This document shows positions 46,285-60,247 of a stretch of DNA of 64,000 nucleotides, piece after piece. Origin of the DNA: a virus. The position numbers and the translations under genes are program-made. The DNA lies in IMG/VR virus record IMGVR_UViG_3300048904_000261. One strand, given 5' to 3'. Within the stretch, counting starts at the first letter, position 1; every line of letters starts with the position of its first letter. The notes beneath the pieces were generated by a model. The model ran no database searches, was not told where the DNA came from, and saw nothing but the letters and a program-made list of their open reading frames with translations.

Positions 46285-46295
46285 TCTTCCCAACC

Positions 46296-47220: not shown

Positions 47221-47341
47221 GTTCCAATCCAATCTGAGCGCGCAAGTTCTCAGTGTGGATTGGAACTAACAAGTTCCCGATTCTGTTACACAATAAGCCA
47301 GAGTCGAAACAATCGGTACAAACCAGAAAGTACAAACAGTT
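47221..47341 (+). promoter_or_regulatory. Early leader unit 1
   Basis: Interrupted 18-bp stem 47221-47238 / 47249-47266 (GTTCCAATCCA..TGGATTGGAAC). Motif copy 1. CCAGAAAG at 47323-47330. ACAGTTATGA at 47336-47345. Confidence 0.5.
47280..47294. repeat. Junction-motif copy 1
   Basis: ATTCTGTTACACAAT followed by A (no ATG). Lies in the leader of the 47342 gene. Confidence 0.85.
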
Positions 47342-47914
47342 ATGATCAAAGAGTTAATTCAAGCGGCCGGCGCAAGTCGGAATGGCAAGTCCAAGGTTGC
47401 ATCCCTCGTGAATGCGAGCCCAGCAGTGAACGCGCGGCGCGCTCAGCCTGCATCGGTTGCGGCGCCGAAAGTCGAAGAGCCCAGTGACGCGGATATTGAC
47501 AATGGTTCGGAAGATTCGTTCGGTGACGAAGAGCACACTGCGTTGAAAGCGCGGTTCATCGATGCTTTGACCGCGCATTGCAAGGCGACGGCGCCGTTGA
47601 GTGAAGTAGTCGCCGAAATGATCGGGCAGGACATTGAAAGGGACGAAGCAATCGATTGGGGGATTGAGTCGGGATTGAGTGAAGGCTATGTCCGCTCGAC
47701 AGTCAGCAGCTTGTATATCGCGCTCACTGGCAAGCGCCAAGTCAAAGCGGGCGGCGGCCGCAAGGCGAACAAGGGCGCAAGGGCTTGCGCGATTCGGGCT
47801 CTGAAGGAATGCGAGACCGTTTCCGATGCGAAGGCATTGCTTCTCGCGGCGCGCCGGCTGATCGAAAAGTGGGAGAAGGCCGGCTCGACTGAGAAGGAAT
47901 TGGCCAAAGGATAA
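47342..47914 (+). CDS. Hypothetical early protein
   Basis: 190-aa ORF preceded by the conserved leader ACAGTTATGA. Confidence 0.6.
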   Translation: MIKELIQAAGASRNGKSKVASLVNASPAVNARRAQPASVAAPKVEEPSDADIDNGSEDSFGDEEHTALKARFIDALTAHCKATAPLSEVVAEMIGQDIERDEAIDWGIESGLSEGYVRSTVSSLYIALTGKRQVKAGGGRKANKGARACAIRALKECETVSDAKALLLAARRLIEKWEKAGSTEKELAKG

Positions 47915-47930
47915 TCCCTGGTTCCGGCTG

Positions 47931-47945
47931 ATTCTGTTACAGAAT
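47931..47945. repeat. Junction-motif copy 2 (perfect palindrome)
   Basis: ATTCTGTTACAGAAT plus G. 16 nt after the stop of the 47342 gene. Confidence 0.9.
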
Positions 47946-48043
47946 GGTGCGCTCTGCCCCGGATGTTCCACGTGGAACGTCTGCTGGGCAGAGCGCGGCA
48001 TTCACCCAAGGTGAAACCGTCGCAAGTCAAATAAACCAAGCCC

Positions 48044-48058
48044 ATTGTGTAACACAAT
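48044..48058. repeat. Junction-motif copy 3 (perfect palindrome)
   Basis: ATTGTGTAACACAAT plus G. Its ATG opens a 9-codon ORF ending in an ATGA overlap with the 48083 start. Confidence 0.9.
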
Positions 48059-48082
48059 GGCAATTCCGAAAGAACCACAGTT

Positions 48083-48457
48083 ATGAAGAACAACACCAAC
48101 ACCAACGGCACGGACAACACCAACGGCATCACGGCGGCGCTGAGCGCGGATGGCAAGTGCCTCGTGGTCTCGCTGCCCCTCATCCTGGACCAGGGCAAGA
48201 AGACCAAGAACGGCCGGAACTACGTGGCGGCGTCGAGCGGCGACTTCCCCAAGAACTGGGTCACGCTGGTCGTGGATGGGGAAGAGATCGGGTTCAACGC
48301 CATCGCGTTGGTCAAAGACCCGACGCATCCCGACAATCAGCCCAAGGTCGAGCCGGTCAAGCCCGCGATGCCCAAATTCTTCCAGAAGAAGGCCAGCTCG
48401 GGCAAGGTGCAGGGCAATGGCACGGTCAATCGCCTGAAGCCGGCCAGTGTCCAGTAA
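48083..48457 (+). CDS. Hypothetical early protein
   Basis: 124-aa ORF (MKNNTNTNGTDNTNGITAALSADGK...). Conserved leader. Its start overlaps the stop of a 9-codon upstream ORF. Confidence 0.6.
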   Translation: MKNNTNTNGTDNTNGITAALSADGKCLVVSLPLILDQGKKTKNGRNYVAASSGDFPKNWVTLVVDGEEIGFNAIALVKDPTHPDNQPKVEPVKPAMPKFFQKKASSGKVQGNGTVNRLKPASVQ

Positions 48458-48576
48458 TCGGCGGCATTGTGTGACAGAATGATCTGAGTCATGCGGTCTG
48501 CCCGGGACAGTGCACCGGGCAGCACGCAGCACTCACGCTGCAGATCAACAACCAAACCGAAAGCGAGAAAACAGTT
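48458..48576 (+). promoter_or_regulatory. Early leader unit 3
   Basis: Motif copy 4. Stem CTGCCCGG / CCGGGCAG at 48498-48505 / 48515-48522, extendable to 48492-48528. CCGAAAG at 48557-48563. ACAGTTATGA at 48571-48580. Confidence 0.55.
48466..48480. repeat. Junction-motif copy 4
   Basis: ATTGTGTGACAGAAT plus G. 9 nt after the stop of the 48083 gene. Confidence 0.9.
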
Positions 48577-48777
48577 ATGAGGAGAGTCACTGAAACCACG
48601 TGGACCTGGAGGGTGAATACACCCAACGGGATAGTCCTGATACCGGATGTCCCGGTGTCTGTCGCAATCAGACGGGCCGGGATGTTCGGGCCGGAGTCAG
48701 TCACGCCGGCGACCGAGGAAGAACACCGGAGCGCCGTCCATTCTGTCACACAATGCCAGGAAGGAGCGGGGCGATGA
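48577..48777 (+). CDS. Hypothetical early small protein
   Basis: 66-aa ORF with the conserved leader. Confidence 0.5.
   Translation: MRRVTETTWTWRVNTPNGIVLIPDVPVSVAIRRAGMFGPESVTPATEEEHRSAVHSVTQCQEGAGR
48740..48754. repeat. Junction-motif copy 5
   Basis: ATTCTGTCACACAAT plus G. Its ATG is the start of 48753..49052. Confidence 0.9.
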
Positions 48778-49052
48778 TCACCTACAAATACGACGGCGAA
48801 CCGCTCGAATGCCTGGCCAGAACGGTCGAGTTCCTGGTGATGAGCACCGATTCATGGGACGTGAACTTCGCCGTGGTCAAGGCGCTGTCTGAAACCCGGC
48901 CGTTCATCGACCAGTTCCCGGACTGGGAAGTGGACCGGCTGTTCGCGGCGGAGCTGAAGAAGAGCATCGGGTTCCGCAGTCAACGGCTCATGGCTATCCG
49001 CACCGTGCTGGGCAACCGCGTGTTCAAGGATAGCTGGTCATCCATTCTGTAA
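48753..49052 (+). CDS. Hypothetical protein
   Basis: Internal ATG of ORF 48600..49052, coinciding with junction motif 48740-48754. 99 aa. Stop TAA lies inside the next motif. Confidence 0.55.
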   Translation: MPGRSGAMITYKYDGEPLECLARTVEFLVMSTDSWDVNFAVVKALSETRPFIDQFPDWEVDRLFAAELKKSIGFRSQRLMAIRTVLGNRVFKDSWSSIL

Positions 49053-49058
49053 CACAAT
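49044..49058. repeat. Junction-motif copy 6
   Basis: ATTCTGTAACACAAT plus G. Contains the upstream stop TAA (49050-49052) and the start at 49057. Confidence 0.9.
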
Positions 49059-49485
49059 GAACACCATCACCTACACCGACGACGAAGAAGCCCGGTTCGG
49101 CCTGATCTCTGGACCATTCTGGCAAGACTGCTGCCACCATGAACCGGGCTCATACGTGGCATCGTTCGAAATCTGCAAGCCCAGCCCGATGGTCAAAGGC
49201 GGGTACAAGCAGGAGTTTTACGATCTCTACGTGTTTGAGAACCGCGGGCAGGAAATCTGCATCCGGTACGGGGCGGAGTGCTCGGAGTATATCTCGCCCG
49301 GTCACCTGGGCCAGTTCCTCACCAGGTTCACGGTGCATGAGCCATATCAGACGGCAGCCAGCATCCTGCTGCACTTCGGCATGGTTGAGTGGCGCAAGAA
49401 GGCAGCCGAAATCCTGGGCGAATTGTTCCCGCCAGCCGTGCCCCTGAACCCGGCTGATTGTGCGACACAATCGGCCGGCATTTGA
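49057..49485 (+). CDS. Hypothetical protein
   Basis: 142-aa ORF. Its start is the motif ATG (49044-49058 plus G). Confidence 0.6.
   Translation: MNTITYTDDEEARFGLISGPFWQDCCHHEPGSYVASFEICKPSPMVKGGYKQEFYDLYVFENRGQEICIRYGAECSEYISPGHLGQFLTRFTVHEPYQTAASILLHFGMVEWRKKAAEILGELFPPAVPLNPADCATQSAGI
49457..49471. repeat. Junction-motif copy 7
   Basis: ATTGTGCGACACAAT followed by C. Lies at the 3-prime end of the 49057 gene, ahead of the fourth leader. Confidence 0.8.
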
Positions 49486-49617
49486 TCCAGGACGAGCCAG
49501 ACCACCATCTTACCCCGGCATGGGGTATCAAAGCCACGCTCAGCCAAACGTCGCGAGCTGAGCGGGGCTTAATGCGGAGCGACACCAAACAGTCCGACAC
49601 CGAAAGACACCACAGTT
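49486..49617 (+). promoter_or_regulatory. Early leader unit 4
   Basis: Preceded by motif copy 7. Stems ACCCC/GGGGT (49512-49526) and CGCTCAGC/GCTGAGCG (49537-49564). CCGAAAG at 49600-49606. ACAGTTATGA at 49612-49621. Confidence 0.55.
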
Positions 49618-49917
49618 ATGAAGAACTCCACCTATCAAGATCGCGTTGACCGGATCATCGCGAAAGACCAGCTCACCGTCACGAACATGAAGGCGCTTTA
49701 CGCCGTCACCGGGGAGCGTTACCGCAACGCCGAGACTCCGGCCGATGAAGAGCGGGCAACCATCATCGCCGACAACATCAACTCCTGGCTGATCAAGGTC
49801 GCGCTGCGCCGGCACCGCAAGGAAGTGGCCGCGGCGACGGGCCCCCTCAACAATACCCTGGCTGCGCTCACCATCGGCAGGATCAAGGCGCGCCGGTTCA
49901 ACGGCAGCAAGGGATAA
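49618..49917 (+). CDS. Hypothetical early protein
   Basis: 99-aa ORF with the conserved leader. Confidence 0.6.
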   Translation: MKNSTYQDRVDRIIAKDQLTVTNMKALYAVTGERYRNAETPADEERATIIADNINSWLIKVALRRHRKEVAAATGPLNNTLAALTIGRIKARRFNGSKG

Positions 49918-49925
49918 CCTCAGCG

Positions 49926-49940
49926 ATTCTGTCACACAAT
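49926..49940. repeat. Junction-motif copy 8
   Basis: ATTCTGTCACACAAT plus G. Its ATG is the start of the unlisted 59-codon ORF. Confidence 0.9.
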
Positions 49941-50118
49941 GAACCCCGCTGAAGAGAAATACAAAGCGGCCCGGCAAGCGCACCTTGACTGTGTGCGCCG
50001 TCTCAACGTGGCCGATGGACAGAAGGCATCGGCCCAACTGCTGGCCAAGCTGCAACACGAAGTTGACGAGGCGTGGAAGGAACGCTGCCGCTGCTTCAAC
50101 GCTTACATGGAGAGCTGA
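49939..50118 (+). CDS. Hypothetical small helical protein (below ORF-track cutoff)
   Basis: 59 codons from the motif ATG (49926-49940 plus G): MNPAEEKYKAARQAHLDCVRRLNVADGQKASAQLLAKLQHEVDEAWKERCRCFNAYMES. Its stop abuts the next start at 50119. Confidence 0.5.
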   Translation: MNPAEEKYKAARQAHLDCVRRLNVADGQKASAQLLAKLQHEVDEAWKERCRCFNAYMES

Positions 50119-50448
50119 ATGAACCTGAGAATCGTCGAGGACGGGGAAGGTCCAACCAAAACCTTCCTCGTCATCGACCCAAGTGAAGGCGTCCCATTAG
50201 TTCTGGATGCCTACGAAACCGAGGCTGAAGCGCGGAGCTTCATCCAATTCATCGGGCAGAGCGACATCGCCATCCCTGTGCCCGCTGTTACCAAGAACCT
50301 GATCGAAACCCAAGGCGAAACCTGTGCGGTGTGCGGAGCCCCGCTCTACCGTGAAACCCCGGGCCAGTGCGCCCCGTGCAAGCAATACTTCCCCGCTTGC
50401 CCCGATCCTAACAACAACGGGGAGGAACCAGACAGCGAGTGGATATGA
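50119..50448 (+). CDS. Hypothetical protein with C-terminal Cys cluster
   Basis: 109-aa ORF. CAVCGAPLYRETPGQCAPCKQYFPAC. Confidence 0.55.
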   Translation: MNLRIVEDGEGPTKTFLVIDPSEGVPLVLDAYETEAEARSFIQFIGQSDIAIPVPAVTKNLIETQGETCAVCGAPLYRETPGQCAPCKQYFPACPDPNNNGEEPDSEWI

Positions 50449-50723
50449 AACCAAGGACCAGAACCTACGAGGCAATCGGTGATGCCGACCGGTACGTCCG
50501 GCGCGTCATCTGCACCGAAACCTACCGTGATAGCCAGCATTGGTGGGTGGTCATCATCCCCGAGGGATACGGCTCCGACCCGCAGCCGATTGTCTTCGCA
50601 AAGAAAACTGAAAGCGGGTGGAGCGTCGAACAAGAGGAAGGCTACGGACATTTCCGTCCGGAGTACGCCTTCGCCATCGCCCGACTGCTCACCGGCAACA
50701 CTGCTTATTCTGAGACACAATGA
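50445..50723 (+). CDS. Hypothetical protein
   Basis: ATG 50445 overlaps the upstream stop (ATGA). 92 aa. The ORF track lists a GTG at 50439. Confidence 0.55.
   Translation: MKPRTRTYEAIGDADRYVRRVICTETYRDSQHWWVVIIPEGYGSDPQPIVFAKKTESGWSVEQEEGYGHFRPEYAFAIARLLTGNTAYSETQ
50707..50721. repeat. Junction-motif copy 9
   Basis: ATTCTGAGACACAAT plus G. Its ATG is the start at 50720. Confidence 0.9.
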
Positions 50724-50983
50724 GCAAAACCAACAGGACAGATAGGACTGGAGAAACCGAGCATCAGAACTATCACCAATCGACGGTGAAGGTCATCCAC
50801 TACTACCGGCGCGAGTGCTACGGCACTCAGTTGGAGATTGTCGTCGATGAAGGCGACCGCAAGGTGCTGGCCCAACTTACAGGCCGGACCAAAACCATCA
50901 ACGGGACCATCCGGGAATTGCTGCGCGACCTGAGCGGGGGACGCATCCAGTTCCAGGAAGTGCTCGCACCCAAACAACCCTGA
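50720..50983 (+). CDS. Hypothetical protein
   Basis: 87-aa ORF. Its start is the motif ATG (50707-50721 plus G). Confidence 0.55.
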   Translation: MSKTNRTDRTGETEHQNYHQSTVKVIHYYRRECYGTQLEIVVDEGDRKVLAQLTGRTKTINGTIRELLRDLSGGRIQFQEVLAPKQP

Positions 50984-50997
50984 TTCTGTGACACAAT
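50983..50997. repeat. Junction-motif copy 10
   Basis: ATTCTGTGACACAAT plus G. Its first base is the last base of the upstream TGA. Its ATG is the start at 50996. Confidence 0.9.
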
Positions 50998-51145
50998 GAA
51001 ACTCGTAGAGATCATCACTAACATCCTCACGTTCATCGCCGGCGCCGCCTTAATGGTGCTGGTGTGGGCGGTACAACTGTTCCTGTTCGGAGCAACCATC
51101 ATGCTGGCCCTGTGGGTATTCTTCAAAATCATCAGCTTATTCTGA
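50996..51145 (+). CDS. Small two-helix membrane protein (below ORF-track cutoff)
   Basis: 49 codons from the motif ATG: MKLVEIITNILTFIAGAALMVLVWAVQLFLFGATIMLALWVFFKIISLF. Stop TGA lies inside the next motif. Confidence 0.5.
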   Translation: MKLVEIITNILTFIAGAALMVLVWAVQLFLFGATIMLALWVFFKIISLF

Positions 51146-51153
51146 GACACAAT
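51139..51153. repeat. Junction-motif copy 11
   Basis: ATTCTGAGACACAAT plus G. Contains the upstream TGA (51143-51145) and the start at 51152. Confidence 0.9.
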
Positions 51154-51856
51154 GAAAACCGTAGCATCAATACTCAAGGCCAGTGAGCTGGCCTACACAC
51201 TCAGCGACGATTGGAACTGGCAACGGCGTGGCGAACGCCCGCTTGATCTCCACATCCAGGCATACCAAACCTACGGTGATGGGACGGTCCAACACAGCGG
51301 CGCCTGGGCTCCGCAATTCCACGACATCATCGACGTGTGCCTCTCGTTCACCGCTGCCATCCTCGCCGACCCGTTCGCCGAAGAGTGGAAGCTGTTGACC
51401 CGATCACTGTGCCGGACGCAGCCGTGCTTCCTCCGCTTCGCCCTGTCGGTGAAGTATAAGGAGGGAGTCAGTCAGTATTACAACATCACCGACATGAAGT
51501 TGGGTAAGTCGGAGAAGCTACGCCATGACAAGCGCTGGGAAGAAGTCTGGTCCGCGTGCAATGGGACGCCGGCCAGTGCGCTGACGATTCTCTATCACCG
51601 GAAGGAATCAATGGACTGGTTCGAGCGCGTGGATCTGGCGATGCGGCTCACGGCATTGGCGCAGGCCGATGGCTGGGGCTACCAACCCATCGAGGAAGTG
51701 TTCGCTCCGCTCGCCGATCTGGAACGGCTTGGCGATTGGCGCCAGGCATTCGAGGGGTACCGCCGTGCCGTCGAAGCAGCCGAGTCACTGGACCTGGCGC
51801 GCCGGCTCAGCGCCAACGCGCTGGAGAACACCAACAGAAGCAAGGCCGCGGCCTGA
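51152..51856 (+). CDS. Hypothetical protein
   Basis: 234-aa ORF. Its start is the motif ATG (51139-51153 plus G). Confidence 0.6.
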   Translation: MKTVASILKASELAYTLSDDWNWQRRGERPLDLHIQAYQTYGDGTVQHSGAWAPQFHDIIDVCLSFTAAILADPFAEEWKLLTRSLCRTQPCFLRFALSVKYKEGVSQYYNITDMKLGKSEKLRHDKRWEEVWSACNGTPASALTILYHRKESMDWFERVDLAMRLTALAQADGWGYQPIEEVFAPLADLERLGDWRQAFEGYRRAVEAAESLDLARRLSANALENTNRSKAAA

Positions 51857-51870
51857 TTGTGAGACACAAT
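51856..51870. repeat. Junction-motif copy 12
   Basis: ATTGTGAGACACAAT plus G. Abuts the upstream TGA. Start at 51869. Confidence 0.9.
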
Positions 51871-52210
51871 GAGTAACATCACACCCGGAGAATGGATCGC
51901 ACTCAACGGCGGTCCCTACATCGTAGCCCAAGGTGAGGACGGCGGCTATCGAGTCGTCGCCATCACCGCCAACACGTTCAACGAAGTCACCTTCGCCGCT
52001 GGCGTAGGCACCATCGAAGACAAGGCCAATGCCAAAGTGCTGGCCGCATCCCCGGCTCTGTTCACCGCCTGCAAAGACGCGCTCGAATGGATATGGGGCG
52101 AGATCGGTAACGACCAGGAGAGCCTTGCCAATCACGGCAAAGAGGGACACGACTCCGACACTTGCATCGTTTGCACACTGCGCGATGCACTCAAGAAAGC
52201 GACACCATGA
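51869..52210 (+). CDS. Hypothetical protein (paralog family with 54816..55103)
   Basis: 113-aa ORF. Its start is a motif ATG. TPGEW...ANAKVLAASPALFTACKDAL parallels TPKPW...DDAMLISAAPELLAACKAVV. Confidence 0.6.
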   Translation: MSNITPGEWIALNGGPYIVAQGEDGGYRVVAITANTFNEVTFAAGVGTIEDKANAKVLAASPALFTACKDALEWIWGEIGNDQESLANHGKEGHDSDTCIVCTLRDALKKATP

Positions 52211-52407
52211 AACTCGAAGAAGCAAAAGAGGAAGCCAAGTCCGCAGCTATCAAATCCAAAATGCCCATCGCCCTCGTCAACGAGGGACTTCACGCCGACG
52301 AATTCGCCGAGCGTGAAGAGGACGGCACTAGCTACGGTTACTGCCCCGAGCTGGCCGTGCCGATCCTGTATCGGTACGGCACCGTCGTTGAAATCATCAA
52401 CCCATGA
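52207..52407 (+). CDS. Hypothetical small protein
   Basis: Internal ATG of ORF 52162..52407 with an ATGA overlap. 66 aa. Confidence 0.5.
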   Translation: MKLEEAKEEAKSAAIKSKMPIALVNEGLHADEFAEREEDGTSYGYCPELAVPILYRYGTVVEIINP

Positions 52408-52598
52408 AGCGCTACCTGCTGTTCGCCGGGATGACCTACTATCCGCTGCCAGGGTGGGAAGGTTTCATCGGCAGCTTCGACACCGCCGATGAGGCACAGG
52501 CCGAAGGTGAGAGGAGACAAAACCAATCCGCGTTCACCGACTGGTGGCAGGTCGTTGACTCAACCACCGGACAGATCGTTGTCCAATGCGAATCGTGA
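52404..52598 (+). CDS. Hypothetical small protein
   Basis: 64-aa ORF with an ATGA overlap. Confidence 0.55.
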   Translation: MKRYLLFAGMTYYPLPGWEGFIGSFDTADEAQAEGERRQNQSAFTDWWQVVDSTTGQIVVQCES

Positions 52599-52795
52599 AG
52601 ACATCAACCATCATCACCGTCGAGTTTCTCCCGATGTTCAAACGCATCTGGATTACTCGCCGGCTGAAGAACGGGATCAACTTGTCCCGTCAATACCCGC
52701 TGCACAGCAGAAGCCTGACCCGCATCTTCAAGGTGGCAGGGCACTGGCGTTGGGTGCAACCGCACGTATCAACACCGAGATTGGAGAGACCATGA
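52586..52795 (+). CDS. Hypothetical basic small protein (weak)
   Basis: 69-aa ORF. Its stop overlaps the next ATG (ATGA). Confidence 0.35.
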   Translation: MRIVKTSTIITVEFLPMFKRIWITRRLKNGINLSRQYPLHSRSLTRIFKVAGHWRWVQPHVSTPRLERP

Positions 52796-52965
52796 GACTA
52801 CACCCACAACTCAAACCCATCATCGATGCCATCACGAAGGACAACCCTTCGCTGCGCCTCGTAACGAAACCCGACCCGACTCATCCCTTGCTGGAATCAG
52901 GCGGGAACGGAAAGCCAATAGCTATGCTGAAGGGAGTTTCAAAATTTCGGAAAGGCGGAACATGA
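52792..52965 (+). CDS. Hypothetical small protein
   Basis: Internal ATG of ORF 52489..52965, preceded by GGAGAG. 57 aa ending KFRKGGT. Confidence 0.5.
   Translation: MRLHPQLKPIIDAITKDNPSLRLVTKPDPTHPLLESGGNGKPIAMLKGVSKFRKGGT
52940..52958 (+). repeat. 19-bp direct repeat, left copy
   Basis: CAAAATTTCGGAAAGGCGG. Identical copy at 53158-53176. Confidence 0.9.
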
Positions 52966-53186
52966 AAATGTTGGTTATGAGAAACTCTATAGGAGGGATG
53001 ATCTGGCAAGCCTATAGAGTAGAAAATGCGGAAGAGGAAACAATACTAATTAGGAACGCTAACCAAAATGGCTTCCTAGTTGAAACTCAACCAGAAGGCT
53101 ACACCACGGAAACAACACCAGGTTGGAGAGACACTCCAGAATGGAAAGTATGCCTAGCAAAATTTCGGAAAGGCGGGAAGTCTTAA
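52962..53186 (+). CDS. Hypothetical small protein in an AT-rich insert
   Basis: 74-aa ORF. Clearly lower GC than its surroundings. Flanked by a 19-bp direct repeat. Ends KFRKGGKS. Confidence 0.5.
   Translation: MKMLVMRNSIGGMIWQAYRVENAEEETILIRNANQNGFLVETQPEGYTTETTPGWRDTPEWKVCLAKFRKGGKS
53158..53176 (+). repeat. 19-bp direct repeat, right copy
   Basis: CAAAATTTCGGAAAGGCGG. The two copies bracket the AT-rich ORF 52962..53186. Confidence 0.9.
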
Positions 53187-53187
53187 T

Positions 53188-53325
53188 ATGAACAGGTATG
53201 TAACATTAAGACAGGTAGTAATAGCCTATACGGTCTTAATGACCTTCATACAGTGCCAAGATTGCCAAACTGCTGACCCGACTGCGCAACGGCTGCAACT
53301 GGTCAGTCCCGTGGTAATTCTGTAA
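53188..53325 (+). CDS. Possible small protein (below ORF-track cutoff)
   Basis: 45 codons: MNRYVTLRQVVIAYTVLMTFIQCQDCQTADPTAQRLQLVSPVVIL. Stop TAA lies inside junction motif 53317-53331. Confidence 0.35.
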   Translation: MNRYVTLRQVVIAYTVLMTFIQCQDCQTADPTAQRLQLVSPVVIL

Positions 53326-53331
53326 CACAAT
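53317..53331. repeat. Junction-motif copy 13
   Basis: ATTCTGTAACACAAT plus G. Start at 53330. Confidence 0.9.
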
Positions 53332-53659
53332 GAGAGTCCGAGTTCACTTCAACTTACATCGGCGTGACTTCAGCGTCATCGATCCTTCGACCGGCCGAGT
53401 CATCCGCAACACCGACACCATCACCCTTCGAGACGTGGAGTTCCGCGTCTCGGAGAAGGGACGGCAGCGTGTCATCCGTACCAGGTGCCGGATGGTCCAT
53501 GCCTATGCGATCGGCACCATCACCGAGCACCAACCACTGAAGACAGCCTGCACCTACAACCCATATCGCGCTGGACATTTCCACCGTCGAGGCTATCCCG
53601 ACCAGCCAGTCTGGACGGCCGACGTGGTTACGTTCAGCGGCGGTTACTGCTGGATATGA
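53330..53659 (+). CDS. Hypothetical protein
   Basis: 109-aa ORF. Its start is a motif ATG. Confidence 0.6.
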   Translation: MRVRVHFNLHRRDFSVIDPSTGRVIRNTDTITLRDVEFRVSEKGRQRVIRTRCRMVHAYAIGTITEHQPLKTACTYNPYRAGHFHRRGYPDQPVWTADVVTFSGGYCWI

Positions 53660-53660
53660 A

Positions 53661-53987
53661 ATGAAACTGGAAATGAAATCCAAATGCGACAACTGCGACT
53701 GGGTCGGCGAGCCGGAGGACAAGGAGATCCCCGGCCTGCATGAGCGGGTTGATCCCGGTGGCACCATGCCATCGGGTGAATGCCCTGAATGCGGATGCCT
53801 GTGCTACCCGGACGTGGACACACGATACCTGCTGACACCAACCGACAAAGTTTGGTGCCCGAAGTGTGAGCGGAAAGTATCCATGCTCGCCACTCAGGAA
53901 CTGGACGGCCCTGCATTCTACATCTGCTTTTCGTGCCGTCACGTTGCGCAGATCGGAGTGGGGCCAGTCAATACTGTAACAGAATGA
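53661..53987 (+). CDS. Multi-CxxC zinc-ribbon protein
   Basis: 108 aa. CDNC, CPECGC, CPKC and CFSC pairs. Confidence 0.55.
   Translation: MKLEMKSKCDNCDWVGEPEDKEIPGLHERVDPGGTMPSGECPECGCLCYPDVDTRYLLTPTDKVWCPKCERKVSMLATQELDGPAFYICFSCRHVAQIGVGPVNTVTE
53971..53985. repeat. Junction-motif copy 14 (variant)
   Basis: ATACTGTAACAGAAT plus G. Start at 53984. Confidence 0.8.
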
Positions 53988-54604
53988 GCCTACCATCCAC
54001 GTTCAGACCGAAGACATCGGCTGACTTCATCGGCCCGGCTGGCAAGTGGGCGGCGCACCTCGAGAAGCTGGTGCGCCTGGCCCTGCCTACCGGGGATCCA
54101 CTCCGCATCATGCTGCTCGGTGCCTCCGGCGTCGGCAAGAGCCAGCTCGCCGAACACCTGGTCCGCACGACCGGCGCCGGCAAGTTCAGCATCAGCCGGT
54201 ATAACGGCAAACGCTTCCGCATCGAGGACGTTGCCGACATCAGCAGCCGGTTCCAACTGCGCGATATGTTCGGCGGGTTCCGCGTTCTCCAACTGGAGGA
54301 AGTCGATCAGGTACCGCCGGGCACACAGATCGCCCTGCTCACCATGCTGGATGATCTGCCACCGTTCACGGCCTGCATTGCCACGAGTAATTGCAGCGTC
54401 AAACAATTCGAGGTCCGGTTTCAACGGCGGTTCACCGTCTGCGAGATCGATCCTCCCACCGAGAAGGATATTCTGGCCATGCTCCAGTTGCGCTGGCCAG
54501 TGATCCCGAAGAAACGCGCCGTCGAGATCGCAACTTTCTGTTGCGGCTCGGTCGGCCAGGCATTAACCGATGCGGACAATGCTTACGCGGAGTTCGCAGC
54601 ATGA
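53984..54604 (+). CDS. AAA+ ATPase, clamp-loader (RFC/DnaX small subunit)-like
   Basis: Internal ATG of ORF 53933..54604 at motif 53971-53985. Walker A LLGASGVGKS, Walker B VLQLEEVD and sensor-1-like CIATSN. Confidence 0.55.
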   Translation: MSLPSTFRPKTSADFIGPAGKWAAHLEKLVRLALPTGDPLRIMLLGASGVGKSQLAEHLVRTTGAGKFSISRYNGKRFRIEDVADISSRFQLRDMFGGFRVLQLEEVDQVPPGTQIALLTMLDDLPPFTACIATSNCSVKQFEVRFQRRFTVCEIDPPTEKDILAMLQLRWPVIPKKRAVEIATFCCGSVGQALTDADNAYAEFAA

Positions 54605-54819
54605 AGATCATCCGAAGCCGGGTCATCCGGTTCAACGTGGTCCACGACAACGGGCATCACGACACCATTGACTTCATCCCTTACGACAACGTGCCGGGAT
54701 GGACGCACCGCATTGCCTATAACGGCAGGCTCACGGCGCACTGGGTCTGCGACAAATTCAAACCGAGCGTCGAGGTAGCACAATTCTTCCTCGACAAAAT
54801 TCTGGCCACAAAACCATGA
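54601..54819 (+). CDS. Hypothetical small protein
   Basis: Internal ATG of ORF 54391..54819 with an ATGA overlap. 72 aa. Confidence 0.5.
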   Translation: MKIIRSRVIRFNVVHDNGHHDTIDFIPYDNVPGWTHRIAYNGRLTAHWVCDKFKPSVEVAQFFLDKILATKP

Positions 54820-55103
54820 GCAAACACACACCAAAACCGTGGAGCTACGCTTGCGATAGCGGCCACTCAACGCCGTGTCTTCGCGGGGTTCAACACTCCA
54901 AGAAGGCAGTGGTCTATTCCGAAGACCGGACGATTGCCAGTCACATTGCAAACTGGGATGACGCCATGCTGATCTCGGCCGCGCCTGAGTTGTTGGCCGC
55001 GTGCAAAGCCGTGGTCGGCTTGATCGAAGCGATGCACGAAGTTCCACCAACGCGCGCAAATATGCTCCGCGCTGCCATCCGCAAGTCCGAAGGGCACCAA
55101 TGA
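54816..55103 (+). CDS. Hypothetical protein (paralog family with 51869..52210)
   Basis: 95-aa ORF with an ATGA overlap. Confidence 0.55.
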   Translation: MSKHTPKPWSYACDSGHSTPCLRGVQHSKKAVVYSEDRTIASHIANWDDAMLISAAPELLAACKAVVGLIEAMHEVPPTRANMLRAAIRKSEGHQ

Positions 55104-55189
55104 ACTACATCATCGCCATCCTGCTGGCTGCCATCGGCACCACCATCTGGCTATACCTATACCGCCGGTTCATCGAGCCGCGCGGTTGA
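55100..55189 (+). CDS. Possible 29-aa single-pass membrane peptide
   Basis: ATG 55100 overlaps the upstream stop. MNYIIAILLAAIGTTIWLYLYRRFIEPRG. The last base of its TGA stop (55187-55189) is the first base of junction motif 55189-55203. Confidence 0.4.
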   Translation: MNYIIAILLAAIGTTIWLYLYRRFIEPRG

Positions 55190-55203
55190 TTCTGTGACAC
55201 AAT
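55189..55203. repeat. Junction-motif copy 15
   Basis: ATTCTGTGACACAAT followed by C. Abuts the upstream TGA. 56 nt before the 55259 start. Confidence 0.85.
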
Positions 55204-55258
55204 CACCCACGCTTAACCACGTTCAACCATACACAACCACAGGTACCCATAGATACCC

Positions 55259-56155
55259 ATGAGTAACAACGGACAAGCACAGACACAGGCGCTCCTGGTC
55301 TCCCTCTCCTTCACCCTCTGCCGTCAAAGCAGGGAGTCCAAGAAGGAAGCGAAGCGGAGCGAGGACGCCAACAATGCGCACCGCGGGGTGTGCAAGACAT
55401 CGGTCTTCTACTTCAAGGAGATCGTCGGCAAGCAAACCAATGACGCGCTCTTCGACCTGCGCCAATACACCAACGCCTGGAGGAGCGAGCACAACAGGCT
55501 GACCAGGCCGTGGGATGGCAACAACGTCCGGCTCCTGCCGGCGGCACTCGTCGCCCAGTACATCGACGCCAAGTCCAAGTTCGAGGAAGGGTTCCCCGCC
55601 GTCCTGCAGGGGTTCCTCGAAGTTTACCAGGACTGGTTCGTCACGGCCCCTCACCGGATGGGCGAGCTGTATGACGTCGCCGACTTCCCGTCCTTCGACG
55701 AGGCGCGCACCGCCATCGGCTTCGATGTCCACATGCTGCCGCTCCCTGAAGCGGAGCAATGGAAGAAAATCTCCATCATCAGCCCCGACCTGGCGCAGAC
55801 GATGGAGGCAAGCACCAACGCACGCATCGCCAAGGCAGTCGAGGCGGCGCGCAAACAGACATGGGTTGACCTGATCGAACCGGTCCAGCACATCGTCACC
55901 ACGCTGAGCAAGGACAAGGGCAAGATCTTCGACAGCCTGATCGGCAACCTCGTCAACATCCTGGACCTGGCGCCGGCATTCAACCTGAGCGGGGACCAGC
56001 AGATGAGTCAGTTCATCACCGAAGCGAAGGCGAGCCTGGCCGTCATCAACCCGGACGATTTGCGGAACGACCCGGAGATCCGCAAGACCACATGCAAGAA
56101 GGCCGAGGCCATCCTCGCCAAGTTCGGTCAACTCGGTAACAGGAAGTTCGCATGA
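55259..56155 (+). CDS. Hypothetical protein (resembles DUF3150-type phage/plasmid proteins, weak)
   Basis: 298-aa ORF with a CA-rich 56-nt leader that lacks a Shine-Dalgarno site. Confidence 0.5.
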   Translation: MSNNGQAQTQALLVSLSFTLCRQSRESKKEAKRSEDANNAHRGVCKTSVFYFKEIVGKQTNDALFDLRQYTNAWRSEHNRLTRPWDGNNVRLLPAALVAQYIDAKSKFEEGFPAVLQGFLEVYQDWFVTAPHRMGELYDVADFPSFDEARTAIGFDVHMLPLPEAEQWKKISIISPDLAQTMEASTNARIAKAVEAARKQTWVDLIEPVQHIVTTLSKDKGKIFDSLIGNLVNILDLAPAFNLSGDQQMSQFITEAKASLAVINPDDLRNDPEIRKTTCKKAEAILAKFGQLGNRKFA

Positions 56156-56445
56156 GAAAAGAAGAGAGAGCCGACGCACTGCGCGAGAAGTTTCGAGAGA
56201 AGCTTCTGGCCCACGTTCAACAAGACGACGCCCACCGCCTATTGGCCATTGCCACCATCGAAGCGCAACGGAAGGAAGCGGACTCCAGAGAGAAACTGGT
56301 GGCCTCCGCCAGAGACGTCGCTGAACTATGCCGGTTGGTTCACGGCGATCGGTATTTGTGCGACACCAAATACCAACTGCCTGATGGTCGCATCGCGGAG
56401 ATCACCGACCGGGGAATCTTCGTCCTCAACGTCAACAAAATCTAA
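56152..56445 (+). CDS. Hypothetical protein
   Basis: 97-aa ORF with an ATGA overlap. Confidence 0.55.
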   Translation: MRKEERADALREKFREKLLAHVQQDDAHRLLAIATIEAQRKEADSREKLVASARDVAELCRLVHGDRYLCDTKYQLPDGRIAEITDRGIFVLNVNKI

Positions 56446-56449
56446 TGAC

Positions 56450-56704
56450 ATGGACACCAAACCAAGCACCGACGCTGAGCGTTGCCAACTGGCGCGCGAG
56501 GTGTTCAATACATGCTTCAATAACACGGAGGCTTTCAGAGAGAATCATTTCGGATCGGACCTTTCCTATCTGATTGGCGCCATAGTGGATGACGTCAATT
56601 CCTTTGTGGATTGGACCGAGTGCCAAACCATTCTTGCGAAGTTCCGCGAATGGTTCCCACCGGAACATAAGGTGTGGCTCTACATCGTCGAAGGGGAATA
56701 CTGA
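56450..56704 (+). CDS. Hypothetical protein
   Basis: Internal ATG of ORF 56249..56704. 84 aa. Confidence 0.5.
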   Translation: MDTKPSTDAERCQLAREVFNTCFNNTEAFRENHFGSDLSYLIGAIVDDVNSFVDWTECQTILAKFREWFPPEHKVWLYIVEGEY

Positions 56705-56905
56705 ATGGACACCTGGTTAGTCATTCACCATCAGCACGGCGGCGCCTTTGCCGCTGCGCTGGTGGAATCCGATCACGAACCCAAGGATGATGAAGTCATC
56801 CGCGCCCTGGACCTGGAGCACGCTCCCGGCCAGGGCGAATCCATCACCGTCCAACTGGTGGACAAGGCCGACGTGCCGGTCCTGCCAGCAACGCAACCGA
56901 AGTAG
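56705..56905 (+). CDS. Hypothetical acidic small protein
   Basis: 66-aa ORF starting immediately after the upstream stop. Confidence 0.5.
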   Translation: MDTWLVIHHQHGGAFAAALVESDHEPKDDEVIRALDLEHAPGQGESITVQLVDKADVPVLPATQPK

Positions 56906-56908
56906 GGC

Positions 56909-56945
56909 TTGACAGTGTATGGCGGTTAGCATACAAACGCCATAC
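56909..56945 (+). promoter_or_regulatory. Promoter with overlapping inverted-repeat operator ahead of the RHH gene
   Basis: TTGACA (56909-56914), a 17-nt spacer and TACAAA (56932-56937). The inverted repeat GTATGGCG (56917-56924) / CGCCATAC (56938-56945) flanks the -10 and ends at the ATG. Confidence 0.45.
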
Positions 56946-57092
56946 ATGAAAACGCCAAGCACAATCCGCTTCTCTTACGGTGCCAAGAAAATCCTTGCCC
57001 GGTTGACGCGCAAGTTAGGCGTCAGCCAGTCGGCAATCATCGAGATGGCTATTCGCCAGTTCGACGAAACAAGTAGAGCAAAATCCAAATGA
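56946..57092 (+). CDS. Ribbon-helix-helix (Arc/MetJ/CopG-type) regulator (below ORF-track cutoff)
   Basis: 48 codons: MKTPSTIRFSYGAKKILARLTRKLGVSQSAIIEMAIRQFDETSRAKSK. Preceded by TTGACA-17-TACAAA, which overlaps an 8-bp inverted repeat. Its stop overlaps the next ATG. Confidence 0.6.
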   Translation: MKTPSTIRFSYGAKKILARLTRKLGVSQSAIIEMAIRQFDETSRAKSK

Positions 57093-57559
57093 GTCATGTC
57101 GTCACATCGGAAATCAAGATCAAGGATCTTGAAGCGCTCCGTAAAGCAGTCGAGTCATTCGGCTGTGTCATGGTGCGGAAACCCAAATACAACTGGTTCG
57201 GTCGCAGCGTCGGGGATTACCCGCTGCCCAAAGGAATGACCGAAGCACAACTCGGGAAGTGCGAGTGGGCAATCCAAGTGCCCGGTGCCTACTACGAAGT
57301 CGGAGTCGTCCGCCTGCCGGACGGCAGCTACACGCTGGCCTTCGACTTCTATGGATCGTCCACTCGGGATTACGTCCCCGGCGCGTCCATGCAGCACGAC
57401 GGCCAGAAGTTGAAGACTAAGTTCGGGGATAAGCTGTGTCTGCTGGCGCAGCAATACAGCAAGCAGGTCACCCTCGCCGCTGCAAAGAAGGCCGGCTACT
57501 CCGTGATGCAGAAGGTCACGCCGGAAGGAAAGATAAAACTCCAGCTCATCCAGTTATGA
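57089..57559 (+). CDS. DUF1257 (Ycf35-like)-type protein
   Basis: 156 aa. The N-terminal pattern VVTSEIKIKDLEALRKAVESFG and the adjacency to a DUF2997-like gene resemble the DUF1257/DUF2997 pairing known from bacterial genomes. Confidence 0.45.
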   Translation: MSHVVTSEIKIKDLEALRKAVESFGCVMVRKPKYNWFGRSVGDYPLPKGMTEAQLGKCEWAIQVPGAYYEVGVVRLPDGSYTLAFDFYGSSTRDYVPGASMQHDGQKLKTKFGDKLCLLAQQYSKQVTLAAAKKAGYSVMQKVTPEGKIKLQLIQL

Positions 57560-57807
57560 GCAGCGAGGCAGCGAAGAAAGCCTGGGCCACGCGCCGGGCC
57601 AGGACGAAGAAGCGCACGCCGGTCCAGCGTCTTACCACGCTGGCCAATGAGCTGGTCCGCTGGCGCCGGAAGGAAACGATCGCCCGAAACAAACTCAAGA
57701 AGCTGAACTTCCAGTTGGAACAGCTCGTCGAGGAAGTTCTCATTCCTCCGCTGGTACCAGACGGCACGTTCAGCACCATGTTCAAAGGAAGGAAGATCAC
57801 CAAATGA
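57556..57807 (+). CDS. Hypothetical basic helical protein
   Basis: Internal ATG of ORF 57436..57807 with an ATGA overlap (CAGTTATGA). 83 aa. Confidence 0.5.
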   Translation: MSSEAAKKAWATRRARTKKRTPVQRLTTLANELVRWRRKETIARNKLKKLNFQLEQLVEEVLIPPLVPDGTFSTMFKGRKITK

Positions 57808-57998
57808 AGAAGGGAATCATTCACGTCACAATCAATCCGGACGGCACCGTCGAGGTTGCTCCGGTAGGATTCAAGGGCCGTCAGTGCAAGGACAAGACCA
57901 AGTTCCTTGAGCAAGCGCTCGGGCTGGATGGCAGCAACTCGAAGAACACGTCCGAGTATTACGAAAGCGAGCAGGTGAAGATCGGACAACGGACATGA
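57804..57998 (+). CDS. DUF2997-type small protein
   Basis: 64 aa. MKKGIIHVTINPDGTVEVAPVGFKGRQCKDKTKFLEQALG matches the pattern I associate with DUF2997. Confidence 0.5.
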   Translation: MKKGIIHVTINPDGTVEVAPVGFKGRQCKDKTKFLEQALGLDGSNSKNTSEYYESEQVKIGQRT

Positions 57999-58198
57999 CC
58001 AAACGAATCGAGTGGGCCTATCCGACATCCGACAACGCGGAGCGATTCGGATTCAAGGACGGGTGTTACACGGTCGAGATGGTTGAACGCACGCCAGAGC
58101 AGCAGCCAGCAATCGCCGTGGCAGCCTTCGCAACGCTGGCCGAAGCGAAGGATCACGCGCATAAAATCGGTGCTGCGTGGGATCGAATCACCAAATGA
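57995..58198 (+). CDS. Hypothetical small protein
   Basis: 67-aa ORF with an ATGA overlap. Confidence 0.5.
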   Translation: MTKRIEWAYPTSDNAERFGFKDGCYTVEMVERTPEQQPAIAVAAFATLAEAKDHAHKIGAAWDRITK

Positions 58199-58479
58199 AA
58201 TCAATCACCATCACCATAGAGGACTGGACTCCGAACATAAGATACACTAACCCGTGCGGTTGCCTATTGCACCGCGCGGCAGTCAGGGAATTCAAACCAA
58301 GGCGCGCCGATCTTCTAGTCGTCTGCCCCGGCCGTCTGGTCGTTGACGTGTCGAAGAAGAACCCGGAGAAGTATCGCTACGACCCGAAGTGGGAGGACCA
58401 GTTGAAGCTGGCGCATGCAGACCCGTGCTACCTGCCACTGACAATCCCGATCTGGAAAGATGAAAACGATAACGATTAA
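58195..58479 (+). CDS. Hypothetical protein
   Basis: Internal ATG of ORF 58177..58479 with an ATGA overlap. 94 aa. Confidence 0.5.
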   Translation: MKSITITIEDWTPNIRYTNPCGCLLHRAAVREFKPRRADLLVVCPGRLVVDVSKKNPEKYRYDPKWEDQLKLAHADPCYLPLTIPIWKDENDND

Positions 58480-58765
58480 CACCGATGGCAGCATCGAGTT
58501 CCTGGGCGACACCTGCCCGCTCGACCTGCCGTTGGCCAACGCTGTGCGGCGGCGCGTCTCGGTCATAGAACCAACAAAGTTCTGGAAAAAGAAAGCATTC
58601 CAAATCCTCCGCCGTGTGGCGGGGGAGACCGGGGCCGCCGCCGCCTTCACTCGGAGGTGGTCTGGCCCGTGGCGGGTGACAATTCTCGCCACTGGGCAGA
58701 CCGAAGTATTCCAGGAGCGCAGCGATGCGATCGCCTGGGAGATCAACCTACTCAATGAGCTATGA
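58460..58765 (+). CDS. Hypothetical protein
   Basis: 101-aa ORF. Confidence 0.5.
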   Translation: MKTITINTDGSIEFLGDTCPLDLPLANAVRRRVSVIEPTKFWKKKAFQILRRVAGETGAAAAFTRRWSGPWRVTILATGQTEVFQERSDAIAWEINLLNEL

Positions 58766-59016
58766 CCATCTGGAAATTCCCACTTCAAGTGGCAGACAGG
58801 CAGACAGTGATGATGCCTGGCGGCGCTGCAATTCTCACCGCGCAAATGCAGAGCGGACAGCTTTGCTTATGGGCACAGGTAGAGGCCACGCAAACCAAGA
58901 CACCGCGCGTTATCAGAATCTTCGGTACCGGGCATGGTATACCTGACGCTGATAACGATTACATCGGGACAGTTCAGATGGGGCCGCTCGTCTGGCATGT
59001 CTTCGAGGAACTGTGA
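58762..59016 (+). CDS. Hypothetical protein (widespread small phage protein pattern)
   Basis: 84 aa. MTIWKFPLQV...MPGGAAILTAQMQSGQLCLWAQV...IFGTGHGIP...YIGTVQMGPLVWHVFE. Confidence 0.55.
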   Translation: MTIWKFPLQVADRQTVMMPGGAAILTAQMQSGQLCLWAQVEATQTKTPRVIRIFGTGHGIPDADNDYIGTVQMGPLVWHVFEEL

Positions 59017-59020
59017 ACAA
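59011..59020 (+). repeat. Degenerate junction-like decamer CTGTGAACAA (left)
   Basis: Contains the stop TGA of 58762..59016. Repeated at 59186-59195. Confidence 0.6.
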
Positions 59021-59185
59021 TTTGATTTGTCCAGTAGCCCACGTGGCTGGCGCGATCCATAACTGGCGCGCATCAGTCTGGAATGGGTGCAACAGCGTAG
59101 CGGTGCGGGATCGCACGCCTGGTTTTGGCCGGCCATAGCTGTCCTTTCGCCGGGCCTCCGCTGTGCTGGGCAAATCATTCTTAAT

Positions 59186-59195
59186 CTGTGAACAA
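59186..59195 (+). repeat. Degenerate junction-like decamer CTGTGAACAA (right)
   Basis: Contains the GTG start of 59188..59703. Confidence 0.6.
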
Positions 59196-59703
59196 GGAAA
59201 CCATCTATCAACAAACCGTCGCTCAGTATAACGAGTGGTACGGAGACGACCCGTCGCACAAGATCAACGGGTGCTGCCTCTACTGGGCGCTGACCGGAGC
59301 GATCATCTTCCAACGGCACGGCATCAGGTCAATCATTCAGGCCGGGACAATGCAATGGCCCGGCCGCGAGGACGACGGAGTTAACGACACACACTTCGGC
59401 TACGTCTGGAGTCCGGAACGGGAGGAGTCACAGGCCGCGCTAAGGGCTGGCATCTTTCCTGAAATCCATATCTGGCTGGCGCTGCCGGAGCGCGGCGAGA
59501 TCGTGGACTTCTCGGTATCCTTCCTGCCCGGGCTGGCGGAGCGCGACGGGTTCAAGTGGACACTGCCGCCTCCGCCTCAGTACCTGTGGTCCACCAAGGA
59601 TGAGATGCCCGAAGGGGTGATCTACTCGCCGAAGTTCCAGGCGATTGCCTGGCTCACTGGCAAACTCGAAGCAGACGGTTTAATCCAATCACGCGCGGCG
59701 TGA
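59188..59703 (+). CDS. Hypothetical protein with Cys...His...Asp arrangement (papain/transglutaminase-like candidate)
   Basis: 171 aa with a GTG start. NGCCLYWALTGAIIF, EIHIWLALPERGEIVDFS. Similar layout in the partial gene at 63579. Confidence 0.4.
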   Translation: MNKETIYQQTVAQYNEWYGDDPSHKINGCCLYWALTGAIIFQRHGIRSIIQAGTMQWPGREDDGVNDTHFGYVWSPEREESQAALRAGIFPEIHIWLALPERGEIVDFSVSFLPGLAERDGFKWTLPPPPQYLWSTKDEMPEGVIYSPKFQAIAWLTGKLEADGLIQSRAA

Positions 59704-59717
59704 TTATGTAACACAAT
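59703..59717. repeat. Junction-motif copy 16 (variant)
   Basis: ATTATGTAACACAAT plus G. Abuts the upstream TGA. Start at 59716. Confidence 0.8.
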
Positions 59718-60240: not shown

Positions 60241-60247
60241 ACCTGTC

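Follow-up and report, generated by a model that had tools for sequence, protein, structure and literature searches.

Why should a single short word stand at junction after junction of a phage operon, supplying there the stop codon of one gene and the start codon of the next? The question arises from a 64,000-nucleotide (nt) stretch of viral DNA, IMG/VR virus record IMGVR_UViG_3300048904_000261, whose full length we call the window. An earlier examination of its letters (hereafter the sequence-only reading) had noticed a 15-bp dyad-symmetric motif, ATTSTGWNACASAAT, at 16 gene junctions and had offered three possible roles for it: an operator or promoter array producing leaderless messenger RNAs, a signal for termination and reinitiation, or a shared junction at which small gene cassettes are exchanged. 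Here we describe the motif as the core of a 19-bp site that is kept as an array in several related lineages while the genes beside it vary. The explanation that we favour, and hold tentatively, is that this site would be read by a dimeric, sequence-specific DNA-binding protein, and that its copies form a putative array of operators and roadblocks in the early operon.

The motif is the core of a 19-bp dyad site

The degenerate 15-mer has 14 exact sites in the window (that at 5407 included), and allowing one mismatch brings the number to 17, the copies at 49457, 53971 and 59703 each differing at one position. Because most sites are nearly palindromic, the 14 exact sites are counted as 25 strand-matches; the mean in 100 dinucleotide-preserving shuffles of the window is 0.00. 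At up to two mismatches, 36 strand-matches are observed and 1.29 expected. The motif is thus far above chance, as a regular-expression search with a shuffled expectation had been proposed to establish. All 16 copies listed by the sequence-only reading lie where it had placed them, 13 of them exact and three with one mismatch, and those at 47931 and 48044 are indeed perfect palindromes of 7+1+7. It had also confined the motif to the plus arm. There, 16 of the 17 copies do fall within 47.3–59.7 kb (47280–59717), but a seventeenth lies elsewhere: the perfect palindrome ATTGTGTAACACAAT at 5407–5421, with no strand of its own, inside the minus-strand gene 4921–5697 and without the flanking bases that we describe next. 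This last copy is isolated within a late-arm gene and reads in frame as DIVLHNA. A two-mismatch match at 30906 is probably due to chance.

When the copies are aligned with their flanks, the conserved block runs from position -1 to position 17 of the motif. Nearly all copies have a pyrimidine at -1 and a purine at 17, and because these two positions are symmetric we regard the site as a dyad of 19 bp rather than 15, with the consensus Y-n-ATwsTGT-n-ACAswAT-n-R; the 15-bp word stands as its core. In the window, 9 of the 16 plus-arm copies carry T at -1 and 12 carry A at 17, and the extended 19-nt pattern has 16 matches where none is expected. Upstream of the motif nothing is conserved, and there is therefore no -35-like element.

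The two arms of the dyad behave as independent half-sites. The forms ATTCTGT, ATTGTGT and ATACTGT combine freely, the choice in each arm being independent of that in the other, and the commonest form in the window, ATTCTGT...ACACAAT, would fold with a C.C mismatch, so that a hairpin or cruciform is not maintained. This behaviour fits a dimeric protein that would read duplex DNA, and not a self-pairing structure or a sigma-70 promoter. The sole clearly asymmetric position is the G at 16, which creates an ATG; the earlier count, that a G comes next after the motif in 13 of 16 copies, holds.

Copies stand at gene junctions and supply codons

Fourteen of the 16 plus-arm copies touch a start codon, a stop codon or non-coding DNA, whereas a random 15-mer does so in 13.6% of placements (p = 7e-11). 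Their density declines along the operon, with eight copies in its first 2.7 kb and one in its last 4.5 kb. Genes here are packed with almost no spacers, which would be why the site overlaps stop and start codons.

Ten ATGs created by the motif had been taken as the best start codons of their genes. Nine of these stand (49057, 49939, 50720, 50996, 51152, 51869, 53330, 53984 and 59716), and three of the nine are also called by an independent pipeline in a 99% identical strain variant. The tenth, at 48753, is ambiguous: a strong Shine-Dalgarno sequence, AGGAAGGAG, precedes the in-frame ATG at 48774, which also overlaps the upstream gene in an ATGA.

Upstream genes enter the motif in three reading frames, and their stops fall in or at it in all three (TGA at -1 to 1, TGA at 5–7, TAA at 7–9 and TGA at 15–17); conservation is accordingly at the level of nucleotides and not of protein, as had been claimed. 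The first base of the motif completes the TGA of the upstream gene in three copies, all of which also begin the next gene: 50983–50997 (closing 50720–50983, opening 50996–51145), 51856–51870 (closing 51152–51856, opening the cassette 51869–52210) and 59703–59717 (closing 59188–59703, opening 59716–60240). The last of these has an ATTATGT arm and is absent from the relative L061. At 51139–51153 the TGA at 5–7 closes gene 50996–51145 and the ATG begins gene 51152–51856; at 49044–49058 the TAA at 7–9 closes gene 48774–49052 and the ATG begins gene 49057–49485; and at 50707–50721, a CTGAGAC variant, the TGA at 15–17 closes gene 50445–50723 and the ATG begins gene 50720–50983. An exception is the copy at 49926–49940, which begins gene 49939–50118 and lies 9 nt after the upstream stop. 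Two further copies begin genes, that at 53317–53331 an L5 gp82-like gene (53330–53659) and that at 53971–53985, with the left arm ATACTGT that dominates in L061, an AAA/clamp-loader-like gene (53984–54604).

The remaining plus-strand copies are not fused to the start of a firmly called gene. The first of the array, ATTCTGTTACACAAT at 47280–47294, precedes the first early gene (ATG 47342) by 47 nt. The first of the two perfect palindromes (47931–47945) lies 17 nt past the stop of gene 47342–47914 and is followed by a strong hairpin. The copy at 48466–48480 lies 9 nt past the stop of gene 48083–48457, directly 5' of a two-hairpin element that we describe below. Two copies lie within the 3' ends of genes: that at 48740–48754 in gene 48577–48777, with its ATG 48753 in frame with ATG 48774, and that at 49457–49471, with one mismatch, in gene 49057–49485, after which a 146-nt structured leader runs to ATG 49618. 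The copy at 55189–55203 stands 55 nt before the gene for a 298-residue protein (55259–56155), and a copy stands at the equivalent place in the relatives L078 and L076.

The second perfect palindrome (48044–48058) supplies an ATG of another kind, which begins a short upstream open reading frame. This frame has 9 codons in the window (48057–48086) and 6 in L061 (2009–2029), and in both it closes with a TGA that shares a base with the main gene's ATG (TTATGA), in the window ATG 48083.

The fused starts have no Shine-Dalgarno sequence, as the sequence-only reading had noted. However, this is not special to the genes that carry the motif, because most junctions of the operon without it are ATGA-type overlaps that likewise lack one. 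The base after the fused ATG is A in all cases in the window and in the close relative L089, and in three of four cases in L061.

The array recurs in relatives, and its tie to particular genes does not

Relatives of the window phage were traced through homologues of the 298-residue protein and of the first early protein (47342–47914). Five further contigs carry the array: two close relatives of the window phage and representatives of three other lineages. The close relatives, L089 and L003, share 76–100% nucleotide identity with the window and have 12 copies each. L061, with about 69% protein identity, has nine copies, mostly of the form ATACTGT-N-ACA[C/G][A/T]AT. In L084, a contig binned with Verrucomicrobiia, all eight of the canonical ATTCTGT-N-ACAGAAT copies are perfect palindromes, and the flanking pair is mostly C...G (6 of 8) where that of the window is mostly T...A. 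L087, whose first protein is about 49% identical, has five copies in 2.2 kb. Only four decayed copies, with the right arm retained, are found in L062 and L086.

More distant and sister phages (L064–68, L079–82) have no copy of the motif, and a de novo search of the motif-less relatives found no other repeated motif in them. Scans of metagenomes and genomes added few further loci. An exact-motif scan of IMG/VR found multiple copies only in the same phage, the other 57 contigs having one chance match each; IMG/VR searches with a 234-residue protein and with a profile of the first early protein returned only the same phage contig, and a search with the AAA ATPase returned one distant locus (41%) on a 188-kb contig.

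Comparison of these arrays separates the site from the codons that it supplies. The start codons of L084 lie 1, 2, 7 or many nt past the motif, up to more than 100 nt, and we conclude that ATG fusion is an optional, local solution. More constant across the lineages is the placement of the motif at most about 20 nt after the upstream stop. The site also changes partners. The homologue of gene 49939 is fused to the motif in the window and in L003 and has a plain ATGA overlap in L089; gene 52207 is fused to it in L089 and not in the window; in L061 the homologue of gene 53330 is without the motif; and upstream of the 298-residue gene a copy is present in the window, L076 and L078, but neither in L061 nor in the motif-less phages. 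The sequence-only reading had itself named the keeping of the same genes without the motif at their junctions as the observation that would count against it. For genes 49939, 51152, 53330 and 55259 this is what the relatives show, and a signal for the expression of particular genes is thereby contradicted.

Three early genes and a hairpin element accompany the array

Three genes, 47342–47914, 48083–48457 and 48577–48777, are the only ones common to all motif-bearing lineages, and the sampled motif-less relatives have none of them. All are on the plus strand. The first encodes a protein of 190 residues with a helical C-terminal domain and is flanked by one copy of the motif just upstream and another just downstream in the window, L061, L084 and L087. 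The second, which is present in all lineages with an intact array and lacks a homologue in the decayed-motif lineage, encodes 124 residues ending in a basic tail. The third encodes 66 residues. We regard the first two products as candidate binding proteins; searches with both sequences against the PDB gave no match. The second has the look of an early nucleic-acid-binding protein expressed at a very high level. Its G+C content at third codon positions (GC3) is 0.91 (about 0.72 is typical), its N-terminus is rich in Asn and Thr, and its C-terminal tail is 100% conserved in a homologue of 60% identity.

The array is also accompanied by a conserved two-hairpin element of about 80 nt, GAGUUUCGCGGUCUGCCC...GGGCAGCACGCGGCACUCACGCCGC, which is present in all motif-bearing relatives and was absent from the sampled motif-less ones. 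It begins 0–9 nt after a copy of the motif and shows compensatory changes in 5 of 16 pairs. In the window it follows 2 of the 16 copies: the main element (48481–48561) lies directly after the copy at 48466, and a weaker second one with a very stable fold (47937–48031, z = -7.7) lies between the copies at 47931 and 48044. About ten instances are found across the relatives (L061 1480–1565; L084 5212–5286 and 5590–5669; L087 2298–2382; L089 421–499 and 723–787; L086 8540–8642). It matches no Rfam family at gathering or relaxed thresholds. The element may act as a terminator, as an antitermination RNA of the nut/put kind or as a stabiliser of the 5' end.

The leaders of this region share a further word. 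Four exact copies of ACAGTTATGA (47336–47345, 48077–48086, 48571–48580 and 49612–49621) span the leader ends and starts of the first four leader-preceded genes; with up to one mismatch there are 6 matches, 1.18 being expected. CCGAAAG lies 8–12 nt upstream of each (CCAGAAAG at 47336), and the leaders concerned are C/A-rich and G-poor.

A putative operator and roadblock array

What would a protein-bound site do at these junctions? The dyad with its half-sites, the flanks that vary with lineage, the bracketing of the first gene, the gradient of copy density and a probably temperate lifestyle (see below) together argue for an operator or roadblock role. The putative binder is most likely encoded by the phage, and one of the three conserved first genes is the leading candidate. 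On binding, the protein would repress or block transcription through the early operon, with the first site as its operator and the internal sites as roadblocks, some perhaps reinforced by the adjacent conserved hairpin. The sites occupy the gap between the stop of one gene and the start of the next, where AAT+G yields an ATG and T-R-A or TGA, in or at the site, yields stops. Because a site so placed must overlap codons, the supply of codons would be a consequence of compaction and not a function. Identical words of 15–19 bp may double as short homologies at which single-gene cassettes are gained, lost or swapped, and cassette exchange would then be a by-product. Where the sequence-only reading had proposed an operator or a promoter, the operator half fits best, given the 19-bp dyad, the independent arms and the palindromes of L084, whereas a leaderless promoter is unsupported as an obligatory role. 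The non-structural operons of other phages offer precedents, namely intergenic sites in many copies for which protein binding is known or has been predicted (PMC4351075, PMC7302621, PMC9283540).

Several observations weigh against an operator array. Only 8 bp separate the centres of the half-sites, a short distance for classical helix-turn-helix dimers. The half-sites resemble those of E. coli LexA (TACTGT/ACAGTA in L061) and the general shape resembles GntR/AraR-type operators, but the spacing fits neither. The arms are biased in composition, the left being mostly C and the right mostly the G-equivalent (window, p = 0.004). This could be a directional constraint that a purely symmetric operator does not predict; alternatively, it could stem from the common ancestry of the copies, and the site is itself close to symmetric. 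At positions 15–17 a stop codon is enriched in four lineages that use differing stop codons (11/16, 5/9, 8/10 and 4/5 copies, against 20% expected), which hints at an added constraint at the level of translation; the purine at dyad position 17 explains only part of this enrichment. As for the binder, the model of the first early protein, with its confident helical domain, has no significant fold match in the PDB (best Foldseek E = 1.0), and the structure model of the second is unusable (pLDDT 45). Recognisable DNA binders are limited to an XRE protein (35727–36119) and RHH proteins, none of them linked to the motif. Lastly, a hairpin that starts 0–9 nt after the motif also fits a transcript 5' end.

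Alternative explanations

A possible, though not a likely, alternative is that the motif is in the first place a module boundary for cassette exchange, a linker carrying stop and start at which homologous recombination (over 15–19 bp) or site-specific recombination takes place. Cassettes do come and go at the motif. At the positions of the window copies 49926 and 51139, where the window has a single copy, L003 has genes of 84 and 88 residues respectively, each exactly between two copies. The cassette 51869–52210 is missing in L003 and in L089, and L089 has the next gene fused directly to the motif. The 3' end of this cassette in the window, GCGACACCATGA, resembles a decayed right arm. L089 has a 59-residue gene inserted directly after its 55189-type copy, and at the equivalents of 49926, 51139, 51856 and 53317 it has the same upstream gene and motif followed by a different downstream gene. 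Thus the motif appears as a seam of mosaicism, as in the T4-type PeSLs (early promoter plus stem-loop cassettes; PMC2839356) and in some Cluster O indels (PMC4351075).

However, some 7–8 of about 22 breakpoints between the window and L089 are at motifs, and about 36% of the junctions carry one, so that breakpoints are not enriched at motifs over ordinary junctions. The proposal of a cassette junction therefore stands in so far as indels and replacements are bounded by the motif, but not as a preference for it. Core sites of tyrosine recombinases have arms around a spacer of 6–8 bp, those of serine recombinases are centred on 2 bp, and attC sites are imperfect palindromes of 57–141 bp; a 19-bp site with a single-base spacer is unlike all of these and does not fit a recombinase core site. 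Finally, symmetric flanks that are specific to each lineage, and conservation of the site at about 50% protein identity, point to a sequence-specific reader and to selection in every generation.

It is unlikely that the motif is a self-contained promoter, or a promoter joined to an activator site, with transcription starting at the A of the terminal AAT to give leaderless, short-leader or hairpin-first transcripts. Such a start would account for the fusion of AAT+G to the start codon in 9 genes of the window and 7 of L089, and for the position of the hairpin element 0–9 nt past the motif in about ten instances, where a transcript 5' end would be. It also accords with L061, in which the left arm TACTGT, sometimes after TG, lies 6 nt before the A of the ATG in the geometry of an extended -10 element, and with L084, in which the AGGAG Shine-Dalgarno sequence of the first gene comes directly after the motif. 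Yet the arm at -12 to -7 in the window is TTCTGT or TTGTGT, without the near-invariant A at -11, and there is no -35 element or upstream conservation. A sigma-70 scan finds a chance-level number of sites, and elsewhere in these phages the host uses TTGACA/-10 promoters. Pfam and PHROG scans of 94 open reading frames of the window revealed no phage RNA polymerase or sigma factor, and the only DxDGD-type motif among them is in a structural protein. A promoter would not need the full 19-bp dyad symmetry, and the same genes occur without the motif in relatives. As an obligatory role, the leaderless promoter also finds no support in L084, in which the motif lies from 1 to more than 100 nt from start codons.

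A more inclusive proposal is improbable in our judgement, namely that the dyad is a portable 'gene-cassette adaptor' read by one of the three conserved early proteins. The 19-bp word would then terminate the upstream gene, supply the next AUG, define where a leaderless or hairpin-capped transcript begins and serve as the point at which single genes are exchanged. If it were true, these phages of an under-studied bacterial phylum would express genes through a modular system that is like integrons or PeSLs but molecularly new.

Quite improbable, finally, is a role at the level of RNA, as a translational junction at which the ribosome is released from the upstream gene and restarts, with no Shine-Dalgarno sequence, at the AUG inside the motif, or as an operator where a translational repressor would cover the AUG. 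Stops and start do lie inside one 19-nt word, at fused starts that lack a Shine-Dalgarno sequence, and the stop at 15–17 is enriched in four lineages that do not use the same codon for it. The A that follows the fused ATG in the window, L089 and most of L061, and the short upstream frames that a motif ATG begins and that end on the main ATG, would suit the same role. On the other side, the junctions without the motif couple through plain ATGA overlaps; six copies in the window and most of those in L084 are far from any start codon, and the distances in L084 argue against termination–reinitiation, one of the three proposals, as an obligatory role. As an RNA hairpin the site would have a 3-nt loop and usually a mismatch, and a dyad with both arms read alike points to duplex DNA.

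Other candidates can be dismissed briefly. A universal three-frame stop was dropped because stops occur in all three frames at only 3 of the 16 copies; a sigma-70 promoter and an intrinsic terminator both scan at chance level; and N4-type hairpin promoters would call for a giant virion RNA polymerase, which is absent, and for arms that maintain pairing, which these do not.

Comparison with known repeat arrays

The closest parallels to the operator array that we favour are two inverted repeats of 17–18 bp, that of Cluster O mycobacteriophages, TGTTCGGNNNCCGAACA (PMC4351075), and that of Microbacterium Cluster EG phages, GATCAACCNNGGTTGATC (PMC7302621). These too are short dyad words in many copies in the short intergenic gaps of a non-structural operon; they are kept among relatives despite differing flanking genes, some indels lie between two copies, and a dimeric protein has been predicted to bind them, their function being not established. 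The sequence is different, however, and the spacer is 1 bp here and 2–3 bp there. More than half of the copies here are fused to a start or stop codon, whereas the Cluster O repeat is not linked to starts and the EG repeat lies 14–22 bp upstream of them. The host lineage is different, and some copies here are tied to a conserved hairpin.

The stoperators of Cluster A mycobacteriophages (PMC9283540, PMC6550527) are similar in number and placement: more than 15 repressor-type sites of a temperate phage, in short intergenic spaces and often over a stop or start, for which a block of transcription elongation as well as initiation has been proposed. They are, in contrast, asymmetric 13-mers bound by a two-domain monomer, occur genome-wide and act in one orientation only, whereas the site here is a 19-bp dyad with eight perfect palindromes in L084. 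Pfam and PHROG scans of the window's open reading frames found no homologue of the stoperator repressor.

Two other systems resemble the array as junctions. The T4-type PeSL cassettes (PMC2839356, PMC4122927) are composite junctions running from an upstream stop to a downstream start between small genes of unknown function, sometimes with a stem-loop, and they bound insertions, deletions and replacements between close relatives. Unlike the 19-bp dyad, they are about 50–100 bp long and contain a consensus sigma-70 promoter and a Shine-Dalgarno sequence. The start-associated sequences (SAS/ESAS) of Cluster K mycobacteriophages (PMC3203893) are confined to the non-structural half of the genome, beside ATG starts, sometimes with the upstream stop inside the repeat, and their association with any given gene is variable. 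They differ in being asymmetric 13-mers with an AGGAG Shine-Dalgarno core, 3–7 bp before the start; the word described here has symmetric arms without a purine-rich core, and the first two bases of the start codon belong to it.

Neither its sequence nor their defining features place the array in the stoperator, SAS, PeSL or Cluster O families. A further parallel is the conserved inverted repeat (CIR) of the Streptomyces phage phiC31, which is said to be a 17-bp inverted-repeat repressor operator in many highly conserved intergenic copies in the early region of a temperate phage; these sites reportedly occur together with conserved early promoters and lack a fusion to start codons.

Inverted-repeat arrays among early genes are known, then, from Cluster O and EG, but their function has never been established. 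The present lineage offers a clean case, with a compact site, half-site variants by lineage, sister phages without the array, three candidate partner genes, a linked hairpin and cassette change at the strain level. It could show how such arrays control early operons and whether regulatory sites double as seams of phage mosaicism, and it gives a first view of gene-expression signals in phages linked, by binning alone, to Verrucomicrobia.

Genome context and lifestyle

The window is the genome of a tailed phage, in which a terminase, DnaB, a DNA methylase, an AAA ATPase and a PD-(D/E)XK nuclease are recognisable; no tRNAs were found in it. A nucleotide search of cultured phages (INPHARED) gave no match to it, and at the protein level the matches were distant ones only. 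Late and replication genes occupy the minus strand up to about 38.4 kb, and the array lies in the plus-strand operon that follows the non-coding stretch 46234–47341. This stretch (1.1 kb, without convincing genes) contains a hairpin with 23-nt arms (47216–47271, fold z = -5.6), two direct repeats AATCCAATCTG and a lone left half-site ATTCTGT near 46583.

There is no integrase in the window itself. The 99% identical strain variant, however, encodes a tyrosine integrase (PF00589; L083 12843 onward) about 2 kb past the position of the window end, and for that reason the phage is probably temperate. A second integrase of this family is encoded in a relative (L081 14128–15051), and in both the gene lies downstream of the AAA ATPase. 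The relatives come from soil metagenomes, and two short contigs were binned in a Verrucomicrobiia metagenome-assembled genome; binning alone thus gives a hint of a Verrucomicrobia host.

Sigma-70-like promoters are recognisable outside the array. In the window, TTGACA-17-TACAAA (56909–56937) stands directly before a small RHH gene (56946–57092), and L061 has TTGACA-16-TATTGT at the same place (about 8965–8995), before a different small basic open reading frame. These promoters indicate that the host polymerase uses canonical -35/-10 signals.

Among cultured phages, the AAA ATPase of the window (60179–61780, phrog_8638) is most similar to those of Cluster O mycobacteriophages, at 31% identity. 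This is also the cluster with the 17-bp dyad repeat array, which may be coincidental. No equivalent of a reverse transcriptase gene was seen in the window; such a gene (RVT_1) lies downstream of the early region in L061 (16691–17572), L062 (19223–20023) and L063 (11331–12206), where it may be part of a diversity-generating retroelement.

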